Assembly (NCBI RefSeq): GCF_056712565.1 | Contig: NZ_CM160072.1 | Length of the DNA stretch: 64,000 bases | Reading direction: 5' to 3' (one strand) | Shown here: one piece after another, positions 7,614-40,905 of the stretch | Layout: every line of letters starts with the position of its first letter | Numbering within the stretch: the stretch's first letter is position 1 | Translations under genes and position numbers: made by a program | Notes under the pieces: model-generated | What the model was told of the DNA's origin: nothing | The model's database searches: none | Seen by the model: only the letters and a program-made list of their open reading frames with translations

Positions 7614-8171
7614 ATGTCTTATTCAGAAATCGCCGCGTGTCTGGCATACGCGGTTTCCGTCTGGCTGGCTGCCAGAAACAATGTGCATACATGGTGGATC
7701 GGCATAATTGGCAGCATATTGTACGGCTGGGTTTTTTGGTCTGTGCAACTCTATGCCGACGTTACGCTCCAGTTATTCTTCATCGCGACCAGCATCACTG
7801 GCTGGATCCACTGGCTGAAAGGTCAGGGTGGCGACATCTTGCCGGTGCGCCGAACGCAAGCCAGTCACTTTTTCCTTTTGTTGCTCTGTGCTGTCGTCGT
7901 GGCAGGCGGTTACGGCTTTTTACTCCACACCTTTACCAATGCCTGGGCACCCTGGCTGGATTCGTTGATTTTGACCTTTAGCGTTCTGGCACAATTCATG
8001 TTGATGGGAAGACGTATCGAAAACTGGTTCGTCTGGTTAGCGGTGAATACCCTGGCAGTGCCACTGTATATGACGCGCGGTTTAAACCTGACCGCTGGCT
8101 TATATTTCCTGTTCTGGATTAACGCCTGGCATGGTTTGTATCAATGGCGCAAAGAGTTGCAAACATCATGA
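7614..8171 (+). CDS. PnuC-family nicotinamide riboside transporter homolog (compact, 185 aa)
   Basis: Blocks VQLYADVTLQLFFIATSITGWIHW and RRIENWFVWLAVNTLAVPLY align with E. coli PnuC (IQLYASLLLQVFFFAANIYGWYAW; RKYVENWLLWVIINVISVV) as I recall it; GGGAGGG SD; begins 22 nt after the alr stop. Confidence 0.75.
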   Translation: MSYSEIAACLAYAVSVWLAARNNVHTWWIGIIGSILYGWVFWSVQLYADVTLQLFFIATSITGWIHWLKGQGGDILPVRRTQASHFFLLLLCAVVVAGGYGFLLHTFTNAWAPWLDSLILTFSVLAQFMLMGRRIENWFVWLAVNTLAVPLYMTRGLNLTAGLYFLFWINAWHGLYQWRKELQTS

Positions 8172-9166
8172 AGCCTTTTGCAACGGGCCTGGTGGTTGGT
8201 AAATTCGCGCCTTTGCATTGTGGTCATGAAAAGTTGATCAATACCGCACTGGCGCAATGTGAAGAACTGTTCATCATCAGTTATTCCGTGCCGGAAATGC
8301 CTGACTGTGAACCTGAAAAGCGCCTGACGTGGCTGCAAGTGCGCTTCCCGCAAGCGACGATTTTGGTACTGACGCCAGAGCTTGTTGCGCGTTATAACTT
8401 ACCTGCCATACCGCATAACGATGCCGACATCCACCGTCATTATGTGGCGACGCTGTGCCTGCAGATATTACGCTGTCGTCCACATGCTGTATTTACTGCA
8501 GAAGACTATGGCGATGGCTTTGCTAACGTGCTGGCGCGGCGTTTTGCCCAACCCGTTGAACACGTTCGAATGGCGCGCCCAGTTGGCGATGAAGCGCCTT
8601 CGGGAACGCTTATTCGTTCCGATGTTCACCGCTATCGCTACATGTTGGCGAATGATGTTTATTACAGTTTCGTTCGCCGTATCTGTCTGCTTGGTGGCGA
8701 ATCTACCGGTAAAAGCACGCTTTCAAAAGCGCTGGCGGATGGGCTTGATACGGTGTATGTCGCTGAATTTGGCCGCGACTATTGGGAAGAAAAAAACGGA
8801 ATCTTAACCGCGGATGATTTGTTGCATATCGCCTGCGAACAGGTACGCCGGGAACAACAAGCAGAAGCTAATCACTATCTTATATGTGACACGTCGCCAC
8901 TCACGACCTTGTTCTATGCCCTTGATCAATATGGTCATGCTCCGCAAGAACTTCATCAACTGGCGGAGCGGGAATACTCTCTGGTGGTGCTTTGCGGCGC
9001 AGAATTTCCCTTCGTGCAGGATGGCACCCGGCAAGGAGAGGTATTTCGCGCACGGCAACAGGTGTGGTATGAACAGGAATTATCGCGCAGGAATATTCCT
9101 TATCTTTCTGTTTCGGGTTCGCTGCAAGAGCGACTGGGGCAAATTCTACATCGCCTTCCCGACTGA
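8168..9166 (+). CDS. NadR-like bifunctional NMN adenylyltransferase / ribosylnicotinamide kinase lacking the N-terminal HTH domain
   Basis: ORF-track ORF 8144-9166 trimmed to ATG 8168, which overlaps the upstream TGA (ATGA coupling); nucleotidyltransferase motif GKFAPLHCGH; Walker A GGESTGKST; same domain order as NadR without the DNA-binding domain. Confidence 0.75.
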   Translation: MKPFATGLVVGKFAPLHCGHEKLINTALAQCEELFIISYSVPEMPDCEPEKRLTWLQVRFPQATILVLTPELVARYNLPAIPHNDADIHRHYVATLCLQILRCRPHAVFTAEDYGDGFANVLARRFAQPVEHVRMARPVGDEAPSGTLIRSDVHRYRYMLANDVYYSFVRRICLLGGESTGKSTLSKALADGLDTVYVAEFGRDYWEEKNGILTADDLLHIACEQVRREQQAEANHYLICDTSPLTTLFYALDQYGHAPQELHQLAEREYSLVVLCGAEFPFVQDGTRQGEVFRARQQVWYEQELSRRNIPYLSVSGSLQERLGQILHRLPD

Positions 9167-10622: not shown

Positions 10623-13367
10623 ATGGAGAACATGACCTCGCCCGGCACGCTGCTTAGTGGAGATAACGCGACCTGGCTTGAAGAGTACTACCAGACCTGG
10701 TTGCGTACGCCGGAACAACTCCCGGAAGACTGGCGGCGTTTTTTTCTTTCACCTGAACTGACTGTCCAAAGCGTATCCGGTGATAACAACGTCAGCGGTG
10801 CGACGTTAAAAAAACAGGCTGCGGTAATACAACTGATCAATGCCTGGCGCACGCAGGGGCATCTGCGCGCAAAGCTTGATCCACTTGGTTTGAATCCCCC
10901 AGCTGACGTTCCCTCCCTCCAGCCTGGTTTTTGGGGATTAAGCGAAGAAGACTTGTTGCAGGAGTTTAGCGTCACCTTTGGCGCACACACCACGCAAATG
11001 CCACTTAAGCAACTGCTTAACCTGCTGGAGCAAGCCTGGGCCGGTAGCCAGGCTTATGAACTTGCTCATCTGGAAAATCGTGAAGAAATCAACTGGTTGT
11101 TATCACGGATTGAGAGCAGCAATGCGCCACAAGCTGATGCCCAAACCTGCATTGCCCGTTTTGAAAAACTGATGGCGGCAGAGACGTTAGAGCGTTATCT
11201 GCATACCCGTTATGTTGGGCAGAAACGGTTTTCTCTGGAAGGGGGCGAAAGTGCAATCCCGGCGCTCGATACGCTGACAAAACGCCTGCGTGCGCAAGGT
11301 GTGGAGGAAATGGTCATTGGCATGGCGCACCGGGGAAGACTTAATGTTCTGGTTAATCTGTTGAATAAAGACCCGGCACAGCTTTTTGCTGAGTTTGAAG
11401 GCAAGCAGACGATCGGCAGTGGTTCAGGCGATGTGAAATACCACATGGGGTATTCCAGCAATCTGGAAACACCTGCCGGTTCGCTGCATGTGGCGCTGGC
11501 GTATAACCCCTCACATCTGGAGATCGTGAATCCGGTGGTGCTGGGCCAGGTGCGAGCCAGGCAGGAACGCCGTGGTGAGGATGGTCAGGCAAAAGTGGTG
11601 GGCGTACTTATTCATGGGGATTCCGCGTTGGGCGGCCTCGGCGTCAACCAAACCACGTTTAACTTATCGCAGACTCAGGGCTACGGCACTGGCGGTACGC
11701 TACATCTGGTGATTAACAATCAGATTGGCTTCACCACTTCCCGCTTGCAGGATATGCGTTCTTCACGGTACTGCACCGATATTGCCAAAATGGTAGCGGC
11801 CCCAATTATCCACGTTAATGGCGATGACGTTGACGCTGTTTGCCAGGTAATGGAACTGGCGTGCGAATGGCGAGACACCTTCCGGCGCGACATCATCATC
11901 GATATTTGCTGCTTCCGTAAGCACGGACACAACGAAAGCGATGAGCCACGTCTTACCCAGCCACAAATGTATCAGGCAGTGGATGCTCACCCTGGTACGC
12001 TCGCCCGTTATGGTGAATCTCTTGCCCGCCGCGGCCTGTTAACTCAGGCGCAACAAGATGAGATGACGGCACGCTATCGCGACTGGCTGGATAGCTGCCA
12101 GAAACGTGAACCGCAGCCTCTCAAACCTGCAATTCACTCTTTTAGCGCTAACTGGTATGGGTTGACCAACCCTCACTGGAGCGCCCCGGTATCTACGGCA
12201 TTGCCTCGGCAAAAGCTGGCAGCGTATGGTGAAATCATTTCTACACTGCCACCCGATGTGGTCGCACATCCTACCATTAAACGGCAACTGGCGTTACGCC
12301 AGGATATGGCCGCAGGTACTCAGCCAATAGACTGGGGAATGGCTGAAATGCTGGCCTATGCATCGCTTGTGGATGCGGGTGTTGGTGTGCGTCTTTCTGG
12401 TGAAGACTCAGGGCGTGGCACGTTCAGTCATCGCCATGCAGTGGTACATCATCAAACTGAAGCCCGTCGTTATCTGCCGTTACAGCATATCCGCGCTGGT
12501 CAGGCATCTTTCGATGTTTATGATTCGGTGCTTAATGAAGAAGCGCTCTTAGCCTTTGAATATGGCTATTCAACGTCTGCGCCTCAGCAACTGGTTATTT
12601 GGGAAGCGCAGTTTGGTGACTTTGCCAACGGCGCTCAGGTTGCTATTGACCAGTTTATCTCGTCTGGCGAAACCAAGTGGGATCGCTATAGCGGTTTAAC
12701 CATTCTTCTGCCGCATGGCTATGACGGACAAGGGCCGGAGCACTCTTCTGCGCGTCCTGAGCGCTGGCTGCAACTGTGCGCAGAAAACAACATGCAGGTG
12801 GTGATGCCCAGTGAGTCAGCACAAATGTTCCATTTGCTGCGCGGTCAGGCATTACGCCCAATGCGCAAACCGTTAGTGATAATGATGAGTAAGCGTTTAC
12901 TTCGGTTTAAAGGCGCTATGAGCGAGCTTTCTGAATTCACTGATGGCGCTTATAAACCGGTAGTCACCGATCCGCAATTGCATCAGTCCCAGAAAGTTAA
13001 GCGCGTTATTTTGTGTAGCGGCCAGGTCTATTACGACGTACTGGAAGCCCGTAAGCAGCGTGAGTGTGAAGATGAGGTAGCGATTGTTCGCCTGGAGCAA
13101 CTCTACCCGTTCCCGGTCGCAGAACTGAATGATGTTCTGGCGAGTTGGCCGAACTGCTGCGAATGGATTTGGTTGCAGGAAGAGCCAGAAAACCAGGGCG
13201 CGTGGCGGCAGATTCGTCATGAGCTGGCGGCACTGAAAATTAACACTCCTTACTGGCAGTATGCAGGCCGCCCGGCAGTGGCAGCTCCGGCGACAGGGTA
13301 TGGGCGTGTACATAAACAACAAATCGACGAATTTCTTGCTGCTGCGTTTGCAGATATTCAGCCATGA
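10623..13367 (+). CDS. 2-oxoglutarate dehydrogenase E1 component paralog (SucA-like)
   Basis: ORF-track ORF 10548-13367 (TTG) trimmed to ATG 10623 with AGGAGA SD; ThDP region HGDSALGGLGVNQTTFNLSQTQGYGTGGTLHLVINNQIGFTTS parallels SucA. Confidence 0.9.
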   Translation: MENMTSPGTLLSGDNATWLEEYYQTWLRTPEQLPEDWRRFFLSPELTVQSVSGDNNVSGATLKKQAAVIQLINAWRTQGHLRAKLDPLGLNPPADVPSLQPGFWGLSEEDLLQEFSVTFGAHTTQMPLKQLLNLLEQAWAGSQAYELAHLENREEINWLLSRIESSNAPQADAQTCIARFEKLMAAETLERYLHTRYVGQKRFSLEGGESAIPALDTLTKRLRAQGVEEMVIGMAHRGRLNVLVNLLNKDPAQLFAEFEGKQTIGSGSGDVKYHMGYSSNLETPAGSLHVALAYNPSHLEIVNPVVLGQVRARQERRGEDGQAKVVGVLIHGDSALGGLGVNQTTFNLSQTQGYGTGGTLHLVINNQIGFTTSRLQDMRSSRYCTDIAKMVAAPIIHVNGDDVDAVCQVMELACEWRDTFRRDIIIDICCFRKHGHNESDEPRLTQPQMYQAVDAHPGTLARYGESLARRGLLTQAQQDEMTARYRDWLDSCQKREPQPLKPAIHSFSANWYGLTNPHWSAPVSTALPRQKLAAYGEIISTLPPDVVAHPTIKRQLALRQDMAAGTQPIDWGMAEMLAYASLVDAGVGVRLSGEDSGRGTFSHRHAVVHHQTEARRYLPLQHIRAGQASFDVYDSVLNEEALLAFEYGYSTSAPQQLVIWEAQFGDFANGAQVAIDQFISSGETKWDRYSGLTILLPHGYDGQGPEHSSARPERWLQLCAENNMQVVMPSESAQMFHLLRGQALRPMRKPLVIMMSKRLLRFKGAMSELSEFTDGAYKPVVTDPQLHQSQKVKRVILCSGQVYYDVLEARKQRECEDEVAIVRLEQLYPFPVAELNDVLASWPNCCEWIWLQEEPENQGAWRQIRHELAALKINTPYWQYAGRPAVAAPATGYGRVHKQQIDEFLAAAFADIQP

Positions 13368-13399
13368 AAGGCGCACAAAAATAATAAGGAGAACATTTT

Positions 13400-14554
13400 A
13401 TGATCGAAATTACTGTCCCTGTATTACCGGAATCTGTCACGGAAGGCACGCTGACAACCTGGTGTAAACAAGAAGGCGAGCACGTAAAACGCGATGATGT
13501 GATTGCCGAGCTGGAAACCGATAAAGTCATTCTGGAAATACCGGCCCCGCACGATGGCGTGTTAAGCAATATTATCGTCAGCGAAGGTAGCACGGTCACG
13601 TCCGCGCAACTGTTGGCGCATCTTAAGCCGCAAGCTGTCATAGAAGAAACCGTCACACCAGTCACCGAAACCCTGGCGATGCCTTCCGCACGGCTGGAGG
13701 CACAGCGTAGTGGTGTTGAACTTGCTGACGTTGCGGGGAGCGGGAGAAATGGACGTATCCTGAAAGAGGATGTACAGCGCGTTACTCCTGCACCAGTCAT
13801 TCAGCCTGAACGGGTGGCGGAGATCGCGCCAGCTAAACCCTTGACACCGGGTGCTCGTCAGGAACGTCGTGAGCCGATGTCGCGCTTACGTCAGCGAATT
13901 GCTGAGCGTCTGCTGGCTTCCCAACAAAATAACGCCATTCTTACCACATTCAACGAAGTAAACATGCAGAGCGTGATGGATTTACGCACCCGCTGGAAAG
14001 ATCGTTTTGCCGAGAAGCACGGCGTGAAGCTGGGCTTTATGTCCTTCTTTGTTAAGGCCGTTACCCGGGCGCTGGAGCGCTTCCCTGTAGTGAATGCCAG
14101 CGTTGATGGCAACGAGATTATCTGGCGTGATTATTGCGATATCGGCATTGCAGTGAGCAGCAACCGCGGCCTGGTAGTGCCTGTGTTACGCAATGCGCAA
14201 TCACTCTCTTTGGTGGAAATTGAACGGCAAATTGCCGAATACGCCACACAGGCACGCAATGGCAAATTGCCGCTGGAGGCGTTACAGGGCGGCACGTTCT
14301 CTATCACCAACGGCGGTACTTTTGGTTCGATGATGTCAACGCCAATCATTAACCCGCCGCAGTCGGCCATTCTTGGGATGCATGCCATCACGCCGCGCCC
14401 GGTCGCAGAAAACGGCCAGGTTGTTATTCGTCCCATGATGTACCTTGCTCTCAGCTATGACCATCGCATTATCGATGGTCAGGAAGCCGTGCAGACATTG
14501 GTGGCAATACGTGAGCTACTGGAATCACCGGAACAACTGTTGCTGGATCTTTAA
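13400..14554 (+). CDS. dihydrolipoyllysine-residue succinyltransferase E2 paralog (SucB-like)
   Basis: 384 aa; lipoyl-lysine motif [14 protein letters not shown]; catalytic [11 protein letters not shown]; AAGGAGA SD. Confidence 0.9.
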
Positions 14555-14565
14555 GGAGGGCGCCG

Positions 14566-15984
14566 ATGAGTACAATTTTTGATGTGGCAGTTATGGGGGG
14601 TGGGCCAGGTGGTTACGTAGCGGCACTGCGGGCTGCGCAGAATGGGCTTTCCGTAGTATGTATTGATGATGGTGTTAATGCACAGGGCGAACCTTCGCCG
14701 GGCGGTACGTGTCTCAATGTCGGCTGTATTCCGTCAAAATCGTTGCTGCAATCTTCCGAGCTGTACGCGCAAGTACAGCATGAGGCAAGCATTCATGGCG
14801 TTAACGTTGAAGGCGTATCTTTCAATGCTGCCGCGATGATTCAACGTAAAGATGCCATAGTAAGCCGCCTGACAATGGGCATCAGCTTGCTGTTTAAGAA
14901 AAATAAAGTGAAGCACTTGTGCGGCCTCGCAACGTTAGAACGTGCTCAGGATGAGATTTGGCAATTACGCGTAAACGATCAACACATTCACGCCCGTAAT
15001 GTAGTGATTGCAACAGGTTCTCAGCCGCGTCAGCTGCCTGGCGTTACCATTGATAATCAACAGATCCTCGACAATCGTGGCGCCCTGGCATTGAGCGAAG
15101 TGCCGCCGCGTCTCGGTGTGATCGGCGCTGGCGTGATTGGCCTTGAACTGGGGTCTGTGTGGAATCGGGTCGGTTCAGATGTCACGCTGCTGGAGATGGC
15201 GCCAACGTTCTTGCCTGCACTGGAAGCTCGCCTGTCGAACGAAGTCCGTAAAGCAATGATTGCCAGTGGGATGAAAATGCAACTGGCAGTAGAGATTGAG
15301 GCTATTGAACAACGGGATGACGGTGTGCATGTGCGCTGGCGGCAGGGTGAGAAGCGAGAAGAAAGCCGCTTCGATAAATTAATTCTTGCCATTGGACGTG
15401 TACCGCGACTTTCTGGTGTCGATCTCGTGCAACTCGGTCTTGAAGCCGATAACCGTGGCGGTATTGCCGTCGATAACTTATGCCGTACCGGGAAAGCCGG
15501 GCTGTGGGCAATTGGTGATGTCGTGCGAGGGCCGATGCTGGCGCATAAAGCGATGGCTGAAGGTGTGGTGGTTGCGGATCAAATTGCCGGACTGGCGGTA
15601 GAGCCGATTAATTTTGCGCTGATCCCTTCGGTGATTTACACCCAACCGGAAGTTGCGTGGGTAGGGGAAAACGAGGCCTCACTGAAAGCCGCTGGCAGAG
15701 TCTTTAACAAAGGAAATTCTCTGTTTGCCGGTAACGGTCGCGCCTTAGCATTAGGCCAGGAAGGTGGGCGTTGCACGTTATACAGCGATAAACACACTGA
15801 CCGCGTACTTGGCGGAGCGATTGTTGGCCCGCAGGCATCGGAGCTGATCAATGAAATTGCGCTGGCGATGACTTTTAGCGCCTCTGGCGAGGATATTGCC
15901 TGTGCGATCCATGCGCATCCGACCTTAAGCGAAGTCATCCACGAAGCAGCAATGGCCTTGAATAATAAAGCATTACACGGATAA
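14566..15984 (+). CDS. dihydrolipoyl dehydrogenase E3 paralog (Lpd-like)
   Basis: 472 aa; FAD fold GGGPGGYVAALRAAQ; redox-active disulfide CLNVGCIPSK. Confidence 0.9.
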   Translation: MSTIFDVAVMGGGPGGYVAALRAAQNGLSVVCIDDGVNAQGEPSPGGTCLNVGCIPSKSLLQSSELYAQVQHEASIHGVNVEGVSFNAAAMIQRKDAIVSRLTMGISLLFKKNKVKHLCGLATLERAQDEIWQLRVNDQHIHARNVVIATGSQPRQLPGVTIDNQQILDNRGALALSEVPPRLGVIGAGVIGLELGSVWNRVGSDVTLLEMAPTFLPALEARLSNEVRKAMIASGMKMQLAVEIEAIEQRDDGVHVRWRQGEKREESRFDKLILAIGRVPRLSGVDLVQLGLEADNRGGIAVDNLCRTGKAGLWAIGDVVRGPMLAHKAMAEGVVVADQIAGLAVEPINFALIPSVIYTQPEVAWVGENEASLKAAGRVFNKGNSLFAGNGRALALGQEGGRCTLYSDKHTDRVLGGAIVGPQASELINEIALAMTFSASGEDIACAIHAHPTLSEVIHEAAMALNNKALHG

Positions 15985-16005
15985 CACATACCACTGAGGG
16001 AATAT

Positions 16006-17175
16006 ATGAATTTACATGAGTATCAGGCCAAATCGTTACTGGCTGGCATGGGGATGCCGTGTCCAAAAGAGATAGCCATCCAACAGATTTCGCAACTGGC
16101 AGATGCCTGGCAACATATTGCTTGCCCGAGTAAAGGCGCGGTACTTAAAGCGCAGGTACATGCTGGTGGGCGCGGTAAAGCTGGCGGCGTAAAAGTGCTT
16201 AAGCAGCTGCCGGAAGCACAGGCTTTTGTACAGCAAATGTTGGGATCGCAACTGGTGACTTATCAGACCGGGCCAGAAGGGCAGTATGTCAGCAGTATTT
16301 TGCTGTGCGAAAACATCTATCCGGTACGCCAGGAACTCTATTTTGGCATGGTGGTGGATCGTGAAAGCCAGCGGGTCACGTTTATTGTCAGCCCGGAAGG
16401 TGGTGTGGAAATTGAAAAAGTCGCCCATGAGACACCGGAGAAAATCAGCAGTGTCAGCATTGATCCACTGACAGGCGTGCAGCCTTGCCATATCCGCGAA
16501 ATGTTTGCTGTTCTGCAACTGGAACACGGGCTATTTGCTACCTTTAGTCGCCTGGTTAATCAGGCGTGGAAAGCCTTTAACGAACTGGATTTCGCCCTGC
16601 TGGAAATTAACCCTCTGGTGTTGCGGGAAACGGGCGAATTTATGTGTGCAGACGCGAAAGTATCGCTGGATGATAACGCGCTGTATCGTCACCCGGAACT
16701 CCAGGTGCTACGTGATGAAACCCAGGAAGATCCACGCGAAAGCCAGGCAGCGAAGCTTGATCTTAATTATGTCTCGCTGGACGGAAATATCGGCTGCATG
16801 GTCAATGGTGCAGGGCTGGCTATGGCAACCATGGACATCATCAAGCTATACGGTGAACAACCCGCAAACTTCCTGGATGTTGGCGGTGGCGCAACCCAGG
16901 AGCGCGTCAGTGAAGCCTTTCGGCTGATTGTTTCCGACAGCAAAGTGAAAGCCATTCTGGTTAATATTTTTGGTGGGATTGTCCGTTGCGACATGATCGC
17001 CAGAGCCATTATTCATGCTCTGAATGAGGCCCGTATCACCCTGCCTGTCGTGGTGCGTCTCTCCGGTAATAACGCTGCCGAAGGGCAGCGGTTACTGGCA
17101 GAAAGTGGCCTGACGGTGGAAGCCGTCAATTCTCTGGATGATGCCGCTAAACGCATCATTGCGTTACTGAATTAA
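16006..17175 (+). CDS. succinyl-CoA synthetase beta subunit paralog (SucC-like)
   Basis: 389 aa; N-terminus MNLHEYQAKSLLAGMGMP typical of the ATP-grasp SucC family. Confidence 0.9.
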   Translation: MNLHEYQAKSLLAGMGMPCPKEIAIQQISQLADAWQHIACPSKGAVLKAQVHAGGRGKAGGVKVLKQLPEAQAFVQQMLGSQLVTYQTGPEGQYVSSILLCENIYPVRQELYFGMVVDRESQRVTFIVSPEGGVEIEKVAHETPEKISSVSIDPLTGVQPCHIREMFAVLQLEHGLFATFSRLVNQAWKAFNELDFALLEINPLVLRETGEFMCADAKVSLDDNALYRHPELQVLRDETQEDPRESQAAKLDLNYVSLDGNIGCMVNGAGLAMATMDIIKLYGEQPANFLDVGGGATQERVSEAFRLIVSDSKVKAILVNIFGGIVRCDMIARAIIHALNEARITLPVVVRLSGNNAAEGQRLLAESGLTVEAVNSLDDAAKRIIALLN

Positions 17176-17187
17176 CAGGAGGTTAAG

Positions 17188-18060
17188 ATGAGCGTTTTGA
17201 TCAACAAACACACGCGGGTACTGGTGCAGGGCATTACCGGCAAAAACGGCACATTTCATACAGAGCAGGCTATTGCGTATGGCACGCAGATTGTGGGTGG
17301 AGTGACGCCAGGTAAGGGCGGGCAACGGCATCTGGATCGCCCGGTTTTTGATTCAATGAAAGAAGCGATGCGACAAACTGAGGCTGATGCCAGCGTGATT
17401 TATGTGCCTGCACCGTTTGTGCTGGATTCTGTTGTTGAGGCTATTGAAGCTGGCGTCAAATTGGTTGTGGTGATCACTGAAGGTGTACCGACACTGGATA
17501 TGGTGAAAGTTCGTCGGCTGCTTGACTGCCACCCGGATGTGCGGCTGATTGGGCCAAACTGCCCAGGAGTTATCACGCCGGGCGAGTGCAAAATCGGGAT
17601 TATGCCTGGTGAAATCCACCGCCCAGGGCGTATTGGGATTGTTTCCCGCTCCGGTACATTAACCTACGAAGCTGTAGCGCAAACCACGGCGCTGGGACTT
17701 GGGCAATCCACCTGTATTGGTATTGGCGGCGATCCGGTTCCGGGGACTAACTTTATTGATGCGCTGCGTTTATTCGAAAATGATCCGCAAACAGACGCGG
17801 TAATTATGATCGGTGAAATTGGTGGTAATGCGGAAGAACGGGCTGCGGAATTTATTCGTCATGAAATGAATAAACCGGTCGTAGGTTATATTGCCGGTGT
17901 TACTGCACCAAAAGGAAAACGCATGGGGCACGCCGGAGCCATTATTTCTGGCGGTAGCGGCAGTGCAGAGGATAAATTCCGTGCGTTCGATAAAGCAGGC
18001 ATGGCATGGACAAGAAACCCGGCGTTGCTTGGCGAAACGTTATGGAATGTTATTAAGTAA
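17188..18060 (+). CDS. succinyl-CoA synthetase alpha subunit paralog (SucD-like)
   Basis: 290 aa; CoA-binding N-terminus [14 protein letters not shown]; phosphohistidine region [17 protein letters not shown]. Confidence 0.9.
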
Positions 18061-18078
18061 TCCATAAATGAATATCAA

Positions 18079-18102
18079 GGGAGCATATCGCTCCCTTTTT
18101 TT
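18079..18102 (+). terminator. rho-independent terminator ending the dehydrogenase/synthetase operon
   Basis: GGGAGC-ATATC-GCTCCC followed by an 8-T run, 19 nt after the sucD-like stop. Confidence 0.65.
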
Positions 18103-18215
18103 ATCTGTGTGGTAAGGGAATCATCTTTTAATAACTGTGCGGAAAACCGCGCATAAAATAAAAAGGATAAATAGCTAACTCATTAAATAACAAAGCGTTA
18201 TTAAAAAATTAAAGA

Positions 18216-18231
18216 TGGCATAGCTCCTGCA
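18216..18231 (+). promoter_or_regulatory. candidate sigma-54 (-24/-12) promoter for the transporter / Ldh_2 operon
   Basis: TGGCATAGCTCCTGCA: GG-N10-GC, close to consensus; about 40 nt upstream of ATG 18272. Confidence 0.6.
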
Positions 18232-18271
18232 ATAGCCAGGCAGGTTTTTTATTTTTCACAATGAGGTGAAT

Positions 18272-19771
18272 ATGTCATCAATATCCCATGGCGCACCACA
18301 AAAGCGTCGAATTATCCCTAATCCCGGCCTGTGGTTGGCGATCATTGCCGGAATTATTATTACCCTTCTGCCACTGGGCGATACCTTGCCCGTCGCCGGA
18401 CAAAATATGATCGCCATTCTGGTGTTTGCCATTATTGTCTGGATCAGCGAAGCGATGGATTACACCGCCAGTGCAATTGTTATTTCCGCACTGATTATCT
18501 TTATGGTTGGTTTTGCCCCGGATATGAATCACCCGGACACGATCCTTGGCACCGCGAAAGCGCTGAAAATGACTCTGTCGGGTTTTTCTAATTCTGCTCT
18601 GGCGCTGGTGGCAGCAGCAATGTTTATCGCGGCGGCAATGACCATTACCGGGCTGGATAAACGCATTGCGCTGTTTACTATGTCGAAAATAGGTGCCAGC
18701 AGCCGCAGCATTATTATCGGTGCCATTGTGGTGACCATCGTCCTGAGCCTGGTTGTACCCAGTGCCACTGCCCGTACGGCTTGCGTGGTGCCGATTATGA
18801 TGGGGGTCATTGCGGCATTTAAGGTGGATAAACATTCACGTTTAGCGGCGTCAATGATGATTGTTATCGCCCAGGCGACCAGTATCTGGAACGTTGGTAT
18901 TCAAACTTCGGCGGCGCAAAACCTGCTTTCTATCGGTTTTATCAATAAAACTTTCGGCGCCGGGCATTCTGTCAGCTGGCTTGACTGGCTGTTAGCGGGC
19001 GCGCCCTGGAGCCTCACCATGTCGGTGATCCTCTATTTCCTCGCACGTAAATTGTTGCCGCCAGAAACGGAAGCTGTTGAAGGGGGGAGCGAGGCCATTA
19101 AAAAAGCACTCGCAGAGTTAGGGCCAACCACCGGTAAAGAAAAACGCTTGATCGGTATTTCGCTATTGTTACTGCTCTTTTGGTCTACTGGCGGAAAATT
19201 ACACAGTATTGATACCACCTCTGTCACCCTTGCCGGACTGGCGATTATGTTGCTGCCAGGCATCGGTGTAATGAGCTGGAAAGAGGTCGAAAAACGTGTG
19301 CAGTGGGGCACGTTGCTGATGTTTGGTATTGGTATCAGCCTGGGGTCCACGCTGCTTGATACGCAGGCAGCTTCATGGATGGCGAACTATGTGGTGAAAG
19401 GTTTTGGTCTTGATGGCTTGCCATCATTAGCCATCTTCGCGATTCTCGCCGCTTTCTTGATAATTATTCACCTGGGGTTTGCCAGTGCCACTGCGCTAAC
19501 TGCCGCATTGCTGCCCATCCTGATTAGCCTGTTAAGCAGTCTGCCGCCAGAACTCGGCGTTAACCCGGTCGGCATGACCATTCTGCTCGCCTTCAGTGTC
19601 AGTTTTGGCTTCATCCTGCCGATTAACGCGCCACAAAATATGGTGTGTATGGGTACGGATACCTTCACGCCACGCCAGTTTACCCGTGTGGGACTGTACC
19701 TGACGGTAATCGGCTACCTGTTGTTGCTACTGTTTGCCGCCACCTGGTGGAAAATTTTAGGTCTAATGTGA
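18272..19771 (+). CDS. anion permease (DASS/CitT-like ion-transporter superfamily), probable 2-oxoglutarate/dicarboxylate uptake
   Basis: ORF-track ORF 18266-19771 (GTG) trimmed to ATG 18272; polytopic hydrophobic 499-aa protein; island context. Confidence 0.75.
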   Translation: MSSISHGAPQKRRIIPNPGLWLAIIAGIIITLLPLGDTLPVAGQNMIAILVFAIIVWISEAMDYTASAIVISALIIFMVGFAPDMNHPDTILGTAKALKMTLSGFSNSALALVAAAMFIAAAMTITGLDKRIALFTMSKIGASSRSIIIGAIVVTIVLSLVVPSATARTACVVPIMMGVIAAFKVDKHSRLAASMMIVIAQATSIWNVGIQTSAAQNLLSIGFINKTFGAGHSVSWLDWLLAGAPWSLTMSVILYFLARKLLPPETEAVEGGSEAIKKALAELGPTTGKEKRLIGISLLLLLFWSTGGKLHSIDTTSVTLAGLAIMLLPGIGVMSWKEVEKRVQWGTLLMFGIGISLGSTLLDTQAASWMANYVVKGFGLDGLPSLAIFAILAAFLIIIHLGFASATALTAALLPILISLLSSLPPELGVNPVGMTILLAFSVSFGFILPINAPQNMVCMGTDTFTPRQFTRVGLYLTVIGYLLLLLFAATWWKILGLM

Positions 19772-19782
19772 GGAAACCAACG

Positions 19783-20856
19783 ATGTCATTACAAATTGCT
19801 GTTGAAAAAGTGCGTTGGTTAGCTGCCGGGCTGCTGGAACTTAATGGCTGTGATGCCGATATCGCTCAGGATGTGGCGGAACATATGATTGAAGCGGAAC
19901 GTTATGGCTTTGCCAGCCACGGCGTCACGCTGCTACCGAAATATCTGGAAAATATCGCTCGTGGCGATGTAACCGCGAATGCCCGCCCGGAATGCTTAAC
20001 AAGTGAAGGTAATTTACAACGTTTTCATGCCCACAATGGCTTTGGTCAACACGCCGGAAAAGTGGCGGTAAATGCTGCCATCGAACAAGCAAAACACCGC
20101 GGTTTTTGCCTGTTAACGTTGTGCCATGCGCATCATTTAGGGCGTATGGGGCATTACGGGCAAATGGTTGCTGATCAAGGCCTGGCGATGCTGGCCATGA
20201 GTAACGTCACCGGGCGTCCGGCACTGGTCGCCCCGTGGGGCGGTGCGGAACCGCGTATGACCACTAACCCTTTCTGCTTTGCCTGGCCGTTCAGTGATGG
20301 GCGTCCGCCGATTCTGGTTGATTTTGCCACCAGTAGCATGGCGCTAAATAAAGCACGGGTAATGTCGTCCACCGGGAAGCAGGCCGCGCCGGGACAATTG
20401 ATCGATGCACAGGGGAATCCAAGCAATGATCCTGGGGTGTTATTCAGCAATCCTCCAGGGGCGTTACTGCCATTTGGTGAGCATAAAGGATTTGGCCTGG
20501 CACTGATGATTGAAATGATGGCGGGGATCTTATCTGGTGGTGACACGATCGCCGAAGATCATCAGACGGATGGATCTGCGCATAATCATCTTTTTGCGTT
20601 GATTATCGATCCTGATCAATTCACCGATCTGGCAGGGGAGAAAGGGCAGTTCTTTGCGGATTATCTGTTAGCTACGCAGCCTCAACCTGGCGGCAATCCG
20701 GTGATTTACCCCGGTATGCCAGAAGCTGCCAACCGGGAACGCAATGCGAAGATGATTACGATCCCGGTATCATTCTGGTCCTGGATAGTTGAACATTACG
20801 CCCGCAAAGGTATCGATTTGGGGTTACATCCTCAGGAATCAGCATTAGCTGGATGA
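19783..20856 (+). CDS. Ldh_2-family (malate/L-lactate dehydrogenase 2 type) 2-hydroxyacid/2-oxoacid oxidoreductase
   Basis: ORF-track ORF 19645-20856 trimmed to ATG 19783 (GAGGAAA SD; the upstream extension would overlap the transporter gene); 357 aa. Confidence 0.7.
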   Translation: MSLQIAVEKVRWLAAGLLELNGCDADIAQDVAEHMIEAERYGFASHGVTLLPKYLENIARGDVTANARPECLTSEGNLQRFHAHNGFGQHAGKVAVNAAIEQAKHRGFCLLTLCHAHHLGRMGHYGQMVADQGLAMLAMSNVTGRPALVAPWGGAEPRMTTNPFCFAWPFSDGRPPILVDFATSSMALNKARVMSSTGKQAAPGQLIDAQGNPSNDPGVLFSNPPGALLPFGEHKGFGLALMIEMMAGILSGGDTIAEDHQTDGSAHNHLFALIIDPDQFTDLAGEKGQFFADYLLATQPQPGGNPVIYPGMPEAANRERNAKMITIPVSFWSWIVEHYARKGIDLGLHPQESALAG

Positions 20857-22203
20857 TTCTGGTCGATAAACTTGCGGTTGAATCTGATGTTTGTTGAGTT
20901 TGTCATATAAAGTCTTGCGCGGCAGCTGTAATAGCCGCGCTGTCAAACTGACTTGGCCTTCCGTTTGTCGCAGCATATCTTCGATTAACTTTTTCTCGAA
21001 AGCATCAATGCAGGCGGTAAGGCCACTCTCTTCTTGCTGAGTCATTGGCACTGGCTGGTGGTGGGTCAGTAAACCGAGAACAAAACGCTCTGCATTGTGT
21101 TTAAGTTCACGTACATTGCCAGGCCAACTTTGTGATTGCAACCAGGCCAGTAACATGGGAGAAATATCAGGCAGAGGACGATTATATTTTTGTGCCGCCT
21201 GACTGGCGAACCAGTAAAACAGTTCAGGGATATCTTCTCGTCGCTGGCGTAGAGGTGGAATATTCAAGCTAACCACATTCAGACGATAATAGAGATCGAG
21301 ACGAAACAGATGTTCTTCGCTGCGACGCAGTAAATCTTCCTTGGTCGCTGCAATAACACGGCAATTCACCGGAATTAATTGATTGGCACCTAATCGTTCA
21401 ATGGTTCTTTCCTGCAATACACGTAGCAGTTTTACCTGCATTCCTGATGGCATTCCCTCTATTTCATCGAGAAATAACGTACCACCATTTGCATGTTCAA
21501 TTTTTCCAATACGCTTTTTAACCGCACCGGTAAATGCGCCCGCCTCATGACCAAATATTTCGCTTTCAAACAACGTTTCTGGTAAGCCTGCACAGTTTAA
21601 GGCAACAAACTGCCCCTGACGGCGGGTACTCCAGTGATGCAGCATTCTGGCGACGACTTCTTTACCACAACCTGTTTCACCATAAATAAGGACATCGGCA
21701 CCGGTATCTGCGACATTAAGGATCATTTTACGCAGTTGTTGCATCTGCGGACTACGACCAATCAGCACCGGGCCATTTTCCTGTTGCAGATTCGCCAGTA
21801 ATTGCTGATTTTCTAAAACCAATCGCCGTTTTTCTACCGCTCTGGCAATAATACTCAATAATTTATCTGAGCTACTTGGTTTCTCAATGAAATCGAATGC
21901 ACCATTACGCATGGCATCCACCGCCATTTCCACGTCACCGTGTCCGGTAATTAAAATAACCGGAATTTTGCTATCCATTTCGTTGATGTAACTGAGGAGC
22001 TCTAGTCCTGATATTCCAGGTAACCTGACATCGGTCAGTATAATAATGTTGGCTTGACTTTGAATAAGGGGAATACTGTGTTCTGCATCGCAACAGGAAA
22101 TAACACGATAACCAGCCAGCGTGAGCGTTTGTTCACAGGCAAAACGTACATCGTCACTATCCTCAATATAAACTATAGTAATTTCACTGGATTTATTATT
22201 CAT
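20845..22203 (-). CDS. kguR: sigma-54-dependent response regulator (NtrC family); matches KguR of the alpha-ketoglutarate utilization island
   Basis: 452 aa; receiver domain (IILTDVRLPG); AAA+ Walker A GETGCGKE; GAFTGA motif; C-terminal HTH. Gene name recalled from the UPEC literature, not verified here. Confidence 0.85.
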   Translation of the reverse strand: MNNKSSEITIVYIEDSDDVRFACEQTLTLAGYRVISCCDAEHSIPLIQSQANIIILTDVRLPGISGLELLSYINEMDSKIPVILITGHGDVEMAVDAMRNGAFDFIEKPSSSDKLLSIIARAVEKRRLVLENQQLLANLQQENGPVLIGRSPQMQQLRKMILNVADTGADVLIYGETGCGKEVVARMLHHWSTRRQGQFVALNCAGLPETLFESEIFGHEAGAFTGAVKKRIGKIEHANGGTLFLDEIEGMPSGMQVKLLRVLQERTIERLGANQLIPVNCRVIAATKEDLLRRSEEHLFRLDLYYRLNVVSLNIPPLRQRREDIPELFYWFASQAAQKYNRPLPDISPMLLAWLQSQSWPGNVRELKHNAERFVLGLLTHHQPVPMTQQEESGLTACIDAFEKKLIEDMLRQTEGQVSLTARLLQLPRKTLYDKLNKHQIQPQVYRPESSS

Positions 22204-24016
22204 GTTCTTCTCCCCATTCAGGCCAGGTTAATGTCATTACTGCGCCGCCTTCAGGATGATTACTGGCGTGGAGTGCGCCGTTCGAATTTCGGACAATTTC
22301 GCTGACTATTGCCAGTCCCAACCCCATTCCTCTACGTTTAGTGGTAAAAAATGGTTCAAATATGCGATCGACAACTTCAGGTGCAAAACCGCCACCGCTG
22401 TCTTTAATGGTAATAATAACTTTGTTATTTGCCTGGCGAATGGCGATATCCAGTCGTTTGTAAGAGCTACCTTCCATAGAATCTAAGGCGTTGCTAATTA
22501 AATTACTGAATATCTGTTCAAGACCGAGCTCATCGCAATTGACAAATAACGGCATGGATGGGGCTTTTATTCGTCGCTCAATGTTATTTTTCTCCATGCT
22601 GTGATTAAGTAACGCCACGGCGCTATACATCACTTTGATGACATCGGCAGAACCTTTAGGTACGCGATGGCGCGAGGCAAATGCTTTAAGTTCGGAAATG
22701 AGCTGCGTCATCCGCTCAATCACTGAAATAATGTGTTTCAGATTCTGTTCAACCTGCGGATACATCTCTTTTTTTAGCATAGTACGCGCGTTATCAGTAA
22801 GTGCGTGAATGGCGGCTAACGGTTGATTTTGTTCATGGGCAATTTCGGTTGCCATCTGTCCAAGCGCCGCCAGTTTGCTGGACTCTGCCAGTTCACTACG
22901 CGTAATTTGTAATACTTGTTCAGCCTGACTGCGCTCTTTTATCTCCTGTATTAATTTTTGATTGATCAATTCCAGGGCAGATGTACGCTCTTTAACCTGT
23001 TTTTCTAATGTTTCATTCGCCAGTGTTAATAATTGTTGTGCATGAGATCGCATTCTCCAGTATTTAATAAATAACAAAAACAGCAGGTAAATAATTAGTG
23101 TAATGACTAACGAAATAGCCCATGACCAGTACAGGTTATCTAAGGGGACCATAATTGTCATTTTCCAGTTAAATTCTGGAATGGCTATTTGTTGCGTATA
23201 ATATTGCGGGAATAAACAGAGTTGTTCTTTTTTATCTTTCAGGAAAGTAAAATTGCTCACGGTATAACAGGGATAATAATCCGCCGGTAAAAGATTGTCG
23301 AGACTATATTGACGGGTAGATTGTAGTTTTTGTTTTGCCTGAACAGGTAACGGTTGCAGTGTTCGCATTCGCCATGGCGATTTTGAACTTAAAAATATAA
23401 TCCCATGTTCATCATTCACGATAATATTTTCAGGACCTTCGGCCCATGCTTTTTCAATTTCATTAAGACTTATTTTTACTACTACAACACCGACAATTTT
23501 TCCTTTATCTTTTATACTTGTAGAGAGGAAGAATCCCGGTGTATTTGTAGTGCTACCAATACCGTAAAAGCGTCCATTTAAGCCAGACATGGCGTGTTTA
23601 TAATAGGGGCGATAGCTATAATTTTGCCCTACATAGCTGCCGGGGTCCTGCCAGTTGCTAGAAGCGATGGCCTTACCTTGGGTATCCAGAATAAATATTG
23701 CTGCGGTTTTGAGTTGAGTATTGAAATGTGCAATTCGTTGATTGAGTTCGCTGGACGTCATATCGTCAGGCGTAATTACCGCCTGACGGATGATATGGTC
23801 TGTTGAGAGCATATAGGGTAAAACATAAAATTGCTCGATGGTGGAATATAATGTGGACTTATACATTTCAAGCCGCATTTTATCGGTACCGGACAAGGTA
23901 TTAAAACGCAAGTGCAAAAAAGCGATTGAAACCGCGAGCATGATAAGAAAAAGTGAAATGCTTGTAATGTGAAATCGCCATTTGTTCTTAAATATATAAT
24001 TCCACGATATTTTCAT
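22196..24016 (-). CDS. kguS: sensor histidine kinase (DctB-like, periplasmic sensing domain); matches KguS
   Basis: 606 aa; two TM segments flanking a roughly 270-aa periplasmic domain; H-box ATEIAHEQNQPLAAI; ATPase G-box DSGGGF; stop overlaps the kguR start by 8 nt. Confidence 0.85.
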   Translation of the reverse strand: MKISWNYIFKNKWRFHITSISLFLIMLAVSIAFLHLRFNTLSGTDKMRLEMYKSTLYSTIEQFYVLPYMLSTDHIIRQAVITPDDMTSSELNQRIAHFNTQLKTAAIFILDTQGKAIASSNWQDPGSYVGQNYSYRPYYKHAMSGLNGRFYGIGSTTNTPGFFLSTSIKDKGKIVGVVVVKISLNEIEKAWAEGPENIIVNDEHGIIFLSSKSPWRMRTLQPLPVQAKQKLQSTRQYSLDNLLPADYYPCYTVSNFTFLKDKKEQLCLFPQYYTQQIAIPEFNWKMTIMVPLDNLYWSWAISLVITLIIYLLFLLFIKYWRMRSHAQQLLTLANETLEKQVKERTSALELINQKLIQEIKERSQAEQVLQITRSELAESSKLAALGQMATEIAHEQNQPLAAIHALTDNARTMLKKEMYPQVEQNLKHIISVIERMTQLISELKAFASRHRVPKGSADVIKVMYSAVALLNHSMEKNNIERRIKAPSMPLFVNCDELGLEQIFSNLISNALDSMEGSSYKRLDIAIRQANNKVIITIKDSGGGFAPEVVDRIFEPFFTTKRRGMGLGLAIVSEIVRNSNGALHASNHPEGGAVMTLTWPEWGEEHE

Positions 24017-25927: not shown

Positions 25928-28750
25928 TTACAGCATCGGCTTGAGGAAGCGCGCCGTATGCGAAGCTTCGCACTCTGCGACGGTTTCTGGCGTACCGGAG
26001 ACGAGGATTTCGCCGCCCCCACTGCCGCCTTCCGGTCCCAGGTCGACAATCCAGTCAGCGGTTTTGATCACGTCGAGATTGTGCTCAATTACCACAATGG
26101 TATTGCCCTGATCGCGCAGTTTATGCAGTACGTCGAGCAGTTGCTGAATATCGGCGAAGTGCAGACCGGTGGTCGGCTCGTCGAGAATATACAGCGTCTG
26201 CCCGGTGCCGCGTTTTGACAGCTCACGCGCCAGCTTCACGCGCTGGGCTTCACCACCAGAAAGTGTGGTTGCGGACTGCCCGAGGCGAATGTACGTCAGG
26301 CCAACGTCCATCAACGTTTGCAGCTTACGCGCCAGAGCTGGCACCGCATCAAAGAACTCACGCGCCTCTTCGATGGTCATATCCAGCACTTCGTGGATGG
26401 TTTTGCCTTTGTACTTAATCTCCAGCGTTTCACGGTTATAGCGTTTGCCTTTGCACTGGTCGCACGGTACGTAAATGTCCGGCAGGAAGTGCATCTCCAC
26501 TTTGATCACGCCGTCGCCCTGACAGGCCTCGCAGCGTCCGCCACGGACGTTAAAGCTGAAACGTCCTGGCGTATAGCCGCGCGCACGGGATTCCGGTACG
26601 CCCGCAAACAGTTCGCGCACAGGTGTAAACACGCCGGTATAGGTCGCCGGGTTAGAACGCGGAGTACGACCAATTGGGCTTTGGTCGATATCGATCACTT
26701 TATCGAAATGCTCCAGTCCCTGAATATCGCGATACGGTGCCGGTTCGGCGATGGTCGCACCATTCAACTGGCGTTGGGCAATCGGGAACAGTGTGTCGTT
26801 AATCAGCGTCGATTTACCGGAACCTGAAACCCCTGTGATGCAGGTAAACAGACCTACCGGCAGCGTCAGCGTCACGTCTTTCAGGTTGTTGCCGCGTGCG
26901 CCCGTCAGTTTCAGCACTTTTTCTGGATTGGCGGGTACGCGTTTCTTCGGCACCTCAATCTTGCGTTTACCGCTCATGTACTGCCCGGTCAACGACTCAG
27001 GCACCGCCATAATCGCTTCCAGTGGACCTTCCGCGACCACTTCACCGCCGTGAACACCCGCACCCGGACCGATATCGATCACATGATCAGCGGCGCGAAT
27101 CGCGTCTTCGTCGTGCTCCACCACAATCACGGTATTACCGAGATCGCGCAGATGGATAAGCGTACCCAACAGGCGCTCGTTATCGCGCTGGTGCAGGCCG
27201 ATAGACGGCTCATCCAGCACGTACATCACGCCAACCAGGCCTGCACCAATCTGGCTCGCCAGACGAATACGCTGGGCTTCACCGCCGGAAAGTGTCTCTG
27301 CTGAGCGGGAAAGTGTCAGGTAATTCAGGCCGACGTTAACGAGGAATTTCAGACGATCGCCGATCTCTTTAAGGATTTTTTCTGCAATCTTCGCCCGCTG
27401 ACCTGCGAGTTTGAGATTGTTGAAGAATTCCATCGCATGACCGATGCTCATGTCGGAGATGGCGGGCAGCGGCGTATTCTCGACATACACGTGGCGTGCT
27501 TCCCGACGCAGACGGGTTCCTTCGCAGCTGGCGCACGGACGATTGCTGATAAACTTGGCTAATTCTTCACGTACCGCGCTGGATTCCGTCTCTTTATAAC
27601 GGCGCTCCATATTGTGCAGCACGCCTTCGAACGGATGACGACGAATGGAGGTATCGCCACGATCGTTCATGTATTTGAATTCAATGTTTTCTTTGCCAGA
27701 ACCGTACAACACCACTTTATGCACGTTCGCGCTCAGGCTGCCCCACGGCGCTTCGACGTCGAACTTATAGTGATCTGCCAGCGATTTCAGCATCTGGAAA
27801 TAATAGAAGTTGCGGCGATCCCAGCCACGGATCGCACCGCCAGCCAGCGACAATTCCGGATTCTGGATCACGCGGTCAGGATCGAAATATTGCTGTACGC
27901 CAAGACCGTCACAGGTCGGGCAGGCTCCCGCCGGGTTGTTAAATGAAAACAGGCGAGGTTCCAGCTCGCGCATACTGTAACCGCAAATCGGGCAGGCAAA
28001 GTTGGCGGAGAACAGCAGCTCTTCCGCTTTCGGGTCGTCCATATCCGCCACTACCGCGGTACCACCGGAAAGCTCCAGCGCGGTTTCAAACGACTCGGCA
28101 AGACGTTGGGTAAGATCGTCACGCACTTTGAAGCGATCAACCACCACTTCAATGGTATGTTTCTTTTGCAGTTCCAGTTTCGGCGGATCGGAAAGATCGC
28201 AGACTTCGCCATCAATACGAGCACGGATGTAACCCTGGCTTGCCAGGTTCTCCAGCGTTTTGGTGTGTTCGCCTTTGCGCTCTTTAATGATTGGCGCGAG
28301 CAGCATCAGACGCTTGCCTTCCGGCTGGGACAACACGTTATCCACCATCTGACTGACGGTTTGCGCCGCCAGCGGTACATCGTGGTCCGGGCAGCGCGGC
28401 TCACCAACGCGAGCGTACAGCAGACGCAAATAGTCGTGGATTTCGGTGATTGTCCCCACCGTAGAGCGCGGGTTATGAGACGTCGATTTCTGCTCAATTG
28501 AGATGGCAGGAGAAAGCCCTTCAATATGGTCGACGTCCGGCTTCTCCATCAGTGACAGAAACTGCCGCGCGTAGGCGGAAAGGGATTCAACGTAACGGCG
28601 CTGCCCTTCGGCATATAAGGTGTCGAAAGCGAGCGAGGATTTGCCAGAACCCGAAAGCCCGGTCACGACAATAAGCTTGTCGCGGGGGATAACGAGGTTG
28701 ATGTTTTTGAGATTATGGGTGCGGGCGCCCCGAACTTCGATCTTATCCAT
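25928..28750 (-). CDS. uvrA: excinuclease ABC subunit A
   Basis: 940 aa; [19 protein letters not shown]...; two ABC ATPase modules (GLSGSGKSS and GVSGSGKST). Confidence 0.97.
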
Positions 28751-28833
28751 TCACCTTTCCCGGATTAAACGCTTTTTTGCCCGGTGGCATGGTGCTACCG
28801 GCGATCACAAACGGTTAATTATGACACAAATTA

Positions 28834-28853
28834 ACCTGAATGAATATACAGTA
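28834..28853. promoter_or_regulatory. LexA (SOS) box in the divergent uvrA/ssb promoter region
   Basis: Bottom strand reads TACTGTATATTCATTCAGGT (CTGT-N8-ACAG core), 84 nt upstream of the uvrA start. Confidence 0.8.
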
Positions 28854-29003
28854 TTGGAATGCATTACCCGGAGTGTTGTGTAACAATGTCTGGCCAGGTT
28901 TGTTTCCCGGAACCGAGGTCACAACATAGTAAAAGCGCTATTGGTAATGGTACAATCGCGCGTTTACACTTATTCAGAACGATTTTTTTCAGGAGACACG
29001 AAC

Positions 29004-29540
29004 ATGGCCAGCAGAGGCGTAAACAAGGTTATTCTCGTTGGTAATCTGGGTCAGGACCCGGAAGTACGCTACATGCCAAATGGTGGCGCTGTTGCCAACA
29101 TTACGCTGGCTACTTCCGAATCCTGGCGTGATAAAGCGACCGGCGAGATGAAAGAGCAGACTGAATGGCACCGCGTTGTGCTGTTCGGCAAACTGGCAGA
29201 AGTGGCCAGCGAATATCTGCGTAAAGGTTCTCAGGTTTATATCGAAGGCCAGCTGCGTACCCGCAAATGGACCGATCAATCCGGTCAGGATCGCTATACC
29301 ACAGAAGTCGTGGTGAACGTTGGCGGCACCATGCAGATGCTGGGTGGTCGTCAGGGTGGTGGCGCTCCTGCAGGTGGCAATATCGGTGGTGGTCAGCCGC
29401 AGGGCGGTTGGGGTCAGCCTCAGCAGCCGCAGGGTGGCAATCAGTTCAGCGGCGGCGCGCAGTCTCGCCCGCAGCAGTCCGCTCCGGCAGCGCCGTCTAA
29501 CGAGCCGCCGATGGACTTTGATGACGATATTCCGTTCTGA
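29004..29540 (+). CDS. ssb: single-stranded DNA-binding protein
   Basis: ORF-track ORF 28941-29540 trimmed to ATG 29004 ([28 protein letters not shown]...); 178 aa; Gly/Gln-rich tail ending DDDIPF. Confidence 0.97.
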
Positions 29541-32346: not shown

Positions 32347-32811
32347 ATGGAAAAGAAATTACCCCGCATTAAAGCGCTGCTAACCCCCGGCGAAGTGGCG
32401 AAACGCAGCGGTGTGGCGGTATCGGCGCTGCATTTCTATGAAAGCAAAGGGTTGATTACCAGTATCCGTAATAGCGGCAATCAGCGGCGATATAAACGTG
32501 ATGTGTTGCGATATGTCGCAATTATCAAAATTGCTCAGCGTATTGGCATTCCGCTCGCAACCATTCGTGAAGCGTTTGGCGTGTTGCCAGAAGGGCATAC
32601 GTTAAGTGCGAAAGAGTGGAAACAGCTTTCGTCCCAATGGCGAGAAGAGTTGGATCGGCGCATTCATACCTTAGTGGCGCTGCGTGACGAACTGGATGGA
32701 TGTATTGGTTGTGGCTGCCTTTCGCGCAGTGATTGCCCGTTGCGTAACCCGGGCGACCGATTAGGAGAAGAAGGTACCGGCGCACGCTTACTGGAAGATG
32801 AACAAAACTAA
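32347..32811 (+). CDS. soxR: redox-sensing MerR-family regulator SoxR
   Basis: 154 aa; [24 protein letters not shown]; [2Fe-2S] cysteine cluster [12 protein letters not shown]. Confidence 0.95.
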
Positions 32812-32840
32812 AGCGCCACAAGGGCGCTTTAGTTTGTTTT
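32810..32840 (+). terminator. soxR terminator stem-loop
   Basis: AAAGCGCC-ACAAG-GGCGCTTT followed by AGTTTGTTTT. Confidence 0.55.
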
Positions 32841-32955
32841 CCGGTCTTTGTCTTTCTCTCTATCCCGCTGGTACACAGGAGGGTTTCCCCCGACGTCAAC
32901 ACACCTCATTCGAGCACGTGGTGGAGGTTCCGGTTGGTGTTGATGCTTTAATTGT
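32815..32955 (-). ncRNA. ryjA: possible RyjA small RNA (position by synteny only)
   Basis: In K-12 a roughly 140-nt sRNA lies convergent to soxR just downstream of it; boundaries here are approximate and not supported by any motif I can read. Confidence 0.25.
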
Positions 32956-40699: not shown

Positions 40700-40905
40700 C
40701 CTTGCCGAATGTAGGCCGGATAAGGCGTTATACGCCGCATCCGGCAATCAATGCCTGATGCGACGCTGTCGCGTCTTATCAGGCCTACAGCCGTTGCCGA
40801 ATGTAGGCCGGATAAGGCGTTCACGCCGCATCCGGCAACCAGCGCCTGATGCGCCGCTGTCGCGTCTTATCAGGCCTACAAACCGTTACCGACTCGCATC
40901 CGGCA
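40700..40905. repeat. REP/BIME cluster: two tandem roughly 90-bp units of palindromic REP sequences between yjcH and acs
   Basis: Two near-identical units each containing GCCGGATAAGGCGTT...ACGCCGCATCCGGCA and TGCGACGCTGTCGCGTCTTATCAGGCCTAC palindromic cores. Confidence 0.85.

Follow-up and report, generated by a model that had tools for sequence, protein, structure and literature searches.

In undamaged cells, the LexA dimer binds a 20-bp imperfect palindrome through its CTG and CAG cores, and after DNA damage the RecA filaments on single-stranded DNA stimulate the self-cleavage of LexA. Binding by LexA was reportedly described by Sancar et al. in 1982, and LexA ChIP-chip reportedly by Wade et al. 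in 2005. The SOS box between uvrA and ssb has been described as common to both genes in E. coli, Salmonella and other gamma-Proteobacteria (PMC9505508, PMC8072944, PMC3323433). For the E. coli K-12 box (Brandsma et al. 1983, 1985; Fernandez de Henestrosa et al. 2000, as cited in PMC9505508), the published heterology index is 6.98 (PMC9505508) or 6.2 (PMC11228462), and both values are mid-range. In Salmonella enterica, the two genes likewise form a divergent pair with one shared box, which has a heterology index of 6.99 and lies 80 bp from the uvrA start codon; moreover, nalidixic acid induced uvrA 11-fold and ssb 9.6-fold in this species (PMC8072944), and the latter value is far above the 1.5- to 2-fold reported for ssb in E. 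coli. Many species of the Vibrionaceae also carry a divergent uvrA-ssb pair with a single common LexA site, and members in which the pair is split have kept separate LexA sites for uvrA and for ssb (PMC3323433).

In this study, a stretch of 64,000 nucleotides (the window) was analysed, and the 20-bp site at the head of Table 1 is almost certainly the chromosomal LexA operator of the E. coli uvrA-ssb divergent control region. The window is E. coli chromosome, being collinear over the whole 64 kb with E. coli ATCC 11775 with 2 mismatches, and the 454 bp surrounding the box were found in 5425 of 5426 complete E. coli genomes. The 20-mer matches the published uvrA/ssb SOS box in every base (PMC9505508), and its 18-mer appears in Table 7 of PMC3009722; the only nearby difference from K-12 is a single SNP just outside the box, at 28833, where the window has A and the K-12-derived uvrA promoter sequence has G. 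The uvrA-ssb LexA box is thus already textbook biology. The cited literature implies that LexA binds the K-12 box, which has the same sequence (PMC9505508, PMC3323433), and LexA would be expected to occupy the site in the present strain as well, judging from this identity.

A first-pass annotation, made from the letters of the DNA, had named the site as a LexA operator of the divergent genes uvrA and ssb. The site, its position and its identity were all upheld by the weight matrix, by conservation and by the published box, while the words "consensus" and simply "shared" have to be qualified as described below. The bottom-strand sequence that it gave is exact to the base, as the reverse complement of the top strand, and its 253-bp divergent gap was likewise borne out, since the 5' side of uvrA at 28750 and the ssb start codon at 29004 leave 28751-29003 between them. 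Its use of the box as a positive control for reading regulatory sites by eye was therefore valid, because a genuine site was read with its coordinates and its strand correct. The distance from the box to the start codon is 83 bp for uvrA and 150 bp for ssb, and the far edge of the box is 170 nt from ssb.

Table 1. Coordinates of the features of the uvrA-ssb control region and of RNA elements elsewhere in the window
Feature	Position	Strand	Description and basis
LexA operator (SOS box)	28834-28853	.	bottom strand, uvrA sense, TACTGTATATTCATTCAGGT; top strand ACCTGAATGAATATACAGTA
LexA box cores	28836-28838; 28849-28851		CTG; CAG
Degenerate half-site	28834-28843		uvrA side; ACCTGAATGA, 5/10 match
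Perfect half-site	28844-28853		ssb side; TACTGTATAT, 10/10 match
uvrA	25928-28750	-	excinuclease ABC subunit A, 940 aa; ORF and RefSeq annotation of a 100% identical strain
ssb	29004-29540	+	single-stranded DNA-binding protein, 178 aa; ORF, sequence and RefSeq annotation
ssb Shine-Dalgarno	28991-28995	+	AGGAG
Putative uvrA promoter	28818-28846	-	-35-like TATTCA 28846-28841, 17-bp spacer, extended -10 TGtCATAAT 28826-28818; relaxed scan
Putative distal LexA-controlled ssb promoter zone	28821-28860	+	two candidates, read by eye
Distal ssb candidate 1	28821-28826; 28845-28850	+	ATGACA, 18 bp, TATACA
Distal ssb candidate 2	28831-28836; 28855-28860	+	TTAACC (TTGACC in K-12), 18 bp, TGGAAT
Candidate middle ssb promoter	28879-28887	+	extended -10 TGtAACAAT; conserved in Escherichia and Citrobacter
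Candidate proximal constitutive ssb promoter	28948-28956	+	extended -10 TGgTACAAT; predicted start near 28963
sraL sRNA, next to soxR	32804-32944	-	Rfam
SECIS element inside fdhF	59369-59423	-	Rfam
Two tandem naRNA4/REP-type elements, yjcH-acs	40714-40876	+	Rfam

The core pattern of the operator was not a discriminating feature by itself. A pattern search found CTG-N10-CAG at 28836-28851 in the form CTGAATGAATATACAG, and the bare pattern occurs 31 times in the window as against 14.4 ± 3.9 times in shuffled sequences. Most of these copies are coding and have G/C-rich spacers, and the excess is probably due to the frequent CTG and CAG codons; the bare core is thus a poor detector of LexA boxes in E. 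coli. The first-pass annotation had given CTGT-N8-ACAG as its pattern, of which the CTGT half holds, but the box reads CTGT-N8-TCAG; moreover, a mismatch to such a core pattern, which it had taken as the one observation that could speak against the site, is a weak test because the core is so common in the window. By contrast with the other 30 copies, in which no more than 6 of the 10 spacer positions are A or T, the copy at 28836 alone has the A/T-rich, (TA)n-like 10-bp spacer of gammaproteobacterial LexA operators (9 of 10). These data indicate that the discriminating features of a LexA box are its spacer composition, its full matrix score and its intergenic location.

The weight-matrix scan that the first-pass annotation had proposed as a check was carried out with a symmetrised matrix built from 18 published LexA boxes (Table 4 of PMC3009722), among which the uvrA site is not included, so that the test was independent. 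The uvrA-ssb box scored 17.6 bits and ranked first among the approximately 64,000 positions of the window, 4.8 bits above the runner-up at 12.8 bits. An independent-base model gives this score a probability of 5e-7 per position, which corresponds to 0.033 expected matches per 64 kb and about 1e-4 per 253-bp region. The maxima of 500 dinucleotide-preserving shuffles of the whole window averaged 11.6 bits; 119 of the 500 reached 12.84 bits and 8 equalled or exceeded the score of the box. Three further matches were rejected as operators since their scores are at the level of the shuffles: 57272 (12.8 bits), inside the gene for an ABC-transporter substrate-binding protein; 36936 (12.8 bits), inside a LysR-family gene; and 43202 (11.8 bits), in the acs-nrfA intergenic region and without the CAG core.

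To examine the conservation of the box, a single genome of each species was searched with the first 150 residues of UvrA; this yielded 80 loci, nearly all of them from Gammaproteobacteria and 78 of them usable. Of the 78 loci, 23 had a box of at least 12 bits in the 250 nt upstream of uvrA, as compared with none of 309 size-matched blocks of uvrA coding sequence (control maximum, 11.8 bits), and such boxes occurred in loci of Enterobacterales, Pasteurellaceae, Vibrio, Aeromonas, Psychromonas and Colwellia. In all 7 Enterobacterales and both Pasteurellaceae loci, ssb was directly divergent from uvrA, with gaps of 148-267 bp and boxes of 13.2-18.8 bits. Moreover, in an alignment of eight Enterobacterales sequences the box was the most conserved intergenic 20-mer, with an identity to the window of 0.93-0.96 as against 0.61 for the rest, and the CTG, the CAG and the central ATAT were invariant. 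Within E. coli, the box and 10 flanking bases were identical in 5396 of 5426 matching records of complete genomes.

It might be argued that the box, lying in an A/T-rich promoter region, resembles the LexA motif by chance and plays no part in regulation; the 31 copies of its core in the window and the 8 shuffles that match its score are in keeping with this view. The expectation for 64 kb, and still more that for the 253-bp region, speaks against this reading, as do the conservation of the 20-mer across genera, the difference between the uvrA-upstream regions and the coding controls, and the identity of the sequence to an experimentally studied operator. Chance resemblance is effectively refuted by the conservation and the literature, and we give it next to no credence.

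The presence of a box is not a necessary property of the gene pair. Eight other gammaproteobacterial loci with divergent uvrA and ssb (L014, L032, L040, L041, L049, L052, L061 and L065) had no box of the E. coli type, the best scores in their gaps being -7.7 to 6.6 bits, which shows that the divergent arrangement can exist without the operator. Where orthologous boxes were found in Vibrio, Aeromonas and Pasteurellaceae, the spacer differed and CTG-N10-CAG was kept. In four Vibrio loci (L008, L012, L013 and L015), a LexA box lies 65 nt upstream of uvrA with the pattern (T/A)ACTGTTTTTTT(A/G)TCCAGTA, for example TACTGTTTTTTTATCCAGTA; at 21-25 bits, these boxes are much stronger than the E. coli uvrA-ssb box. 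That of L012 is identical to the E. coli uvrB box of the training set, and the other three are one or two bases off. In these four loci ssb is not adjacent to uvrA, and in L008, the one examined, galU lies upstream instead. Four Pseudomonas loci (L021, L022, L025 and L027) share a conserved degenerate box, TAGTGTGCATCCATCCAGTA, of 12.5 bits with GTG for CTG, at a fixed distance of approximately 47-48 nt upstream of uvrA, and L023 has CAGTGTATATTCATCCAGTC; this element may represent either a LexA box in decay or a site at which a different factor binds.

The first-pass annotation had called the operator a consensus one, and this description did not hold. Compared with the ideal palindrome TACTGTATATATATACAGTA, the box has 5 mismatches, all of which fall in the uvrA-side half, where only half of the positions match. 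A search for TACTGTATATATATACAGTA with up to 3 mismatches accordingly gave no match in the window, and the matrix was needed to find the site. When placed among the 18 training boxes, which range from 13.7 to 29.0 bits, the box lies within the range but at its weak end, ranking third from the bottom and in the weak third of known boxes. It is thus a mid-affinity, half-degenerate operator rather than a consensus one. The boxes of umuDC, sbmC, recN and sulA resemble it in the CTG-N10-CAG core, in the A/T-rich spacer and probably also in repression by promoter occlusion; however, they score 25-29 bits and are near-perfect palindromes, whereas the uvrA-ssb box has one degenerate half. Being weaker than these boxes fits a higher basal expression and a weaker induction.

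A stringent scan of 28650-29100 for sigma-70 promoters and terminators gave nothing at threshold, and the candidates for the uvrA promoter and for the middle and proximal ssb promoters in Table 1 were obtained with a relaxed hexamer scan, so that the proposed hexamers are weak matches. In the putative uvrA promoter, with a predicted start near 28811, the candidate -35 hexamer TATTCA, itself a weak match, falls inside the LexA box, and the published SOS box likewise overlaps the uvrA -35 (PMC9505508). The ATTATGACA block of this promoter is strongly conserved in the intergenic alignment. On the ssb side, either of the two distal candidates would place the box over core promoter elements, and the proximal candidate sits in the second conserved intergenic block, TAATGnTACAATCGCGCG. 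The segment 28854-28865, beginning TTGGAATGCA, adjoins the box on the ssb side, and in Enterobacteriaceae the conservation extends past the 20-mer into it; it might serve the distal ssb promoter as its -10 or the uvrA promoter as an upstream element. No Rfam family was found in the uvrA-ssb intergenic region at an E-value of 1 or below, and there is accordingly no sign of a structured leader.

The SNP at 28833 turns the top-strand TTGACC of K-12 into TTAACC, which is the -35-like hexamer of one of the distal ssb candidates. The same position also varies among genera in the intergenic alignment, and this variability suggests that the SNP is neutral. A more elaborate proposal is that the asymmetry of the half-sites, together with the conserved flank 28854-28865, gives the divergent promoters different strengths of repression, and that the SNP, which is lineage-specific, makes the SOS response of ssb in the present B2-type strain even smaller than that in K-12; we regard this proposal as quite unlikely.

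The same overlap with promoter elements raises the question of whether the conserved block serves mainly as the core promoter or as the site of another regulator, such as ArcA, rather than of LexA. Figure 1 of PMC9505508 places an ArcA site between uvrA and ssb, the box overlaps the putative uvrA -35, and the conservation runs into the flanks at 28816-28829 and 28854-28865. However, the invariant columns are exactly the CTG and CAG of LexA and the central ATAT and do not correspond to a -35 consensus, and the boxes of Vibrio, Aeromonas and Pasteurellaceae have retained CTG-N10-CAG despite the change in their spacers. Furthermore, additional regulators would supplement the control by LexA and would not replace it. 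An explanation in which LexA is not the main ligand of the block is therefore very improbable, and the block is best read as a LexA operator.

With this operator, the divergent genes would be controlled as follows. The box would cover the -35 of the leftward uvrA promoter and overlap the core of one of the three rightward ssb promoters, the most distal one, so that bound LexA would block RNA polymerase at both. After the self-cleavage of LexA, the operator would empty, and the uvrA promoter and the distal ssb promoter would fire. Since the operator is a middling one, with one perfect and one degenerate half and a heterology index of about 7, appreciable basal expression and a modest induction, about 4-fold for uvrA, would be expected. 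The two LexA-independent proximal promoters would supply most of the ssb transcript, and because of their dominance the SOS response of ssb in E. coli would be small and seen only on strong induction.

These expectations may be compared with the published measurements. In RNA-seq data of 2024, uvrA was induced 3.9-fold by AZT and showed a 4.4-fold lexA dependence, while the values for ssb were 1.5-fold and 1.0-fold (PMC11228462); older fusions had given about 4-fold for uvrA (PMC9505508). It has been reported that ssb has three promoters, of which only the most distal is LexA-repressed, and that its basal transcript is equal in the wild type and in lexA3; an induction of ssb was absent in several older protein-level studies and in three array studies, whereas RT-qPCR revealed a lexA3-sensitive induction of ssb after UV and gamma rays, and ssb was overexpressed in a constitutive-SOS mutant (all in PMC9505508). 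The regulation of ssb through the uvrA-ssb box is therefore disputed.

In view of these data, the box may be functionally a uvrA operator only, its position relative to ssb following from the divergent arrangement and its control of ssb in E. coli being negligible beside the proximal promoters. The RNA-seq values, the equal basal transcript in lexA3 and the many negative earlier studies agree with such a role, and so do the greater distance of the box from the ssb start codon than from that of uvrA, the four Vibrio loci in which the uvrA box stands alone, with galU in place of ssb in the one examined, and the eight loci that keep the divergent pair without a box. On the other hand, the lexA3-sensitive induction detected by RT-qPCR, the overexpression in the constitutive-SOS mutant (PMC9505508) and the 9.6-fold induction of ssb in Salmonella (PMC8072944) are at odds with it. 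Moreover, the Vibrionaceae in which the pair is split have retained an independent LexA site at ssb (PMC3323433), which argues for selection on the control of ssb. A box acting on uvrA only is thus a possibility to be taken seriously, although we consider it the less probable one, and an operator that acts on both genes is preferred. The word "shared" of the first-pass annotation is correct in the structural sense; functionally, however, the box is biased towards uvrA, as shown by the RNA-seq values and by the fact that only one of the three ssb promoters is concerned. The presence of a LexA box is not equivalent to a strong SOS induction, and ssb is the classic case in which constitutive promoters mask the effect of the operator.

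The window also contains regions outside the uvrA-ssb locus that deserve mention. An accessory island at 10623-24016, between tyrB and aphA, encodes a second set of 2-oxoglutarate dehydrogenase E1, E2 and lpdA, together with sucC, sucD, a DASS anion symporter, an Ldh-family oxidoreductase and a sigma-54 regulator with a sensor kinase. The boxes of lexA itself are absent from the 64-kb window because lexA lies outside it, displaced by accessory DNA, and the island helps to explain this displacement. The segment of the island from the symporter to the regulator (18272-22203) was present in 1045 of 5426 complete E. coli genomes, and the island presumably resembles the KguS/KguR alpha-ketoglutarate utilisation island of uropathogenic strains. 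Upstream of dnaB, at 1-4971, are genes for an MFS transporter, an enoyl-CoA hydratase, an acyl-CoA:acetate/3-ketoacid CoA transferase and a LacI-family regulator, and a pnuC-like transporter and an AAA ATPase are encoded between alr and tyrB (7614-9166). Neither of these groups, around dnaB and alr, is known to belong to the K-12 gene order.
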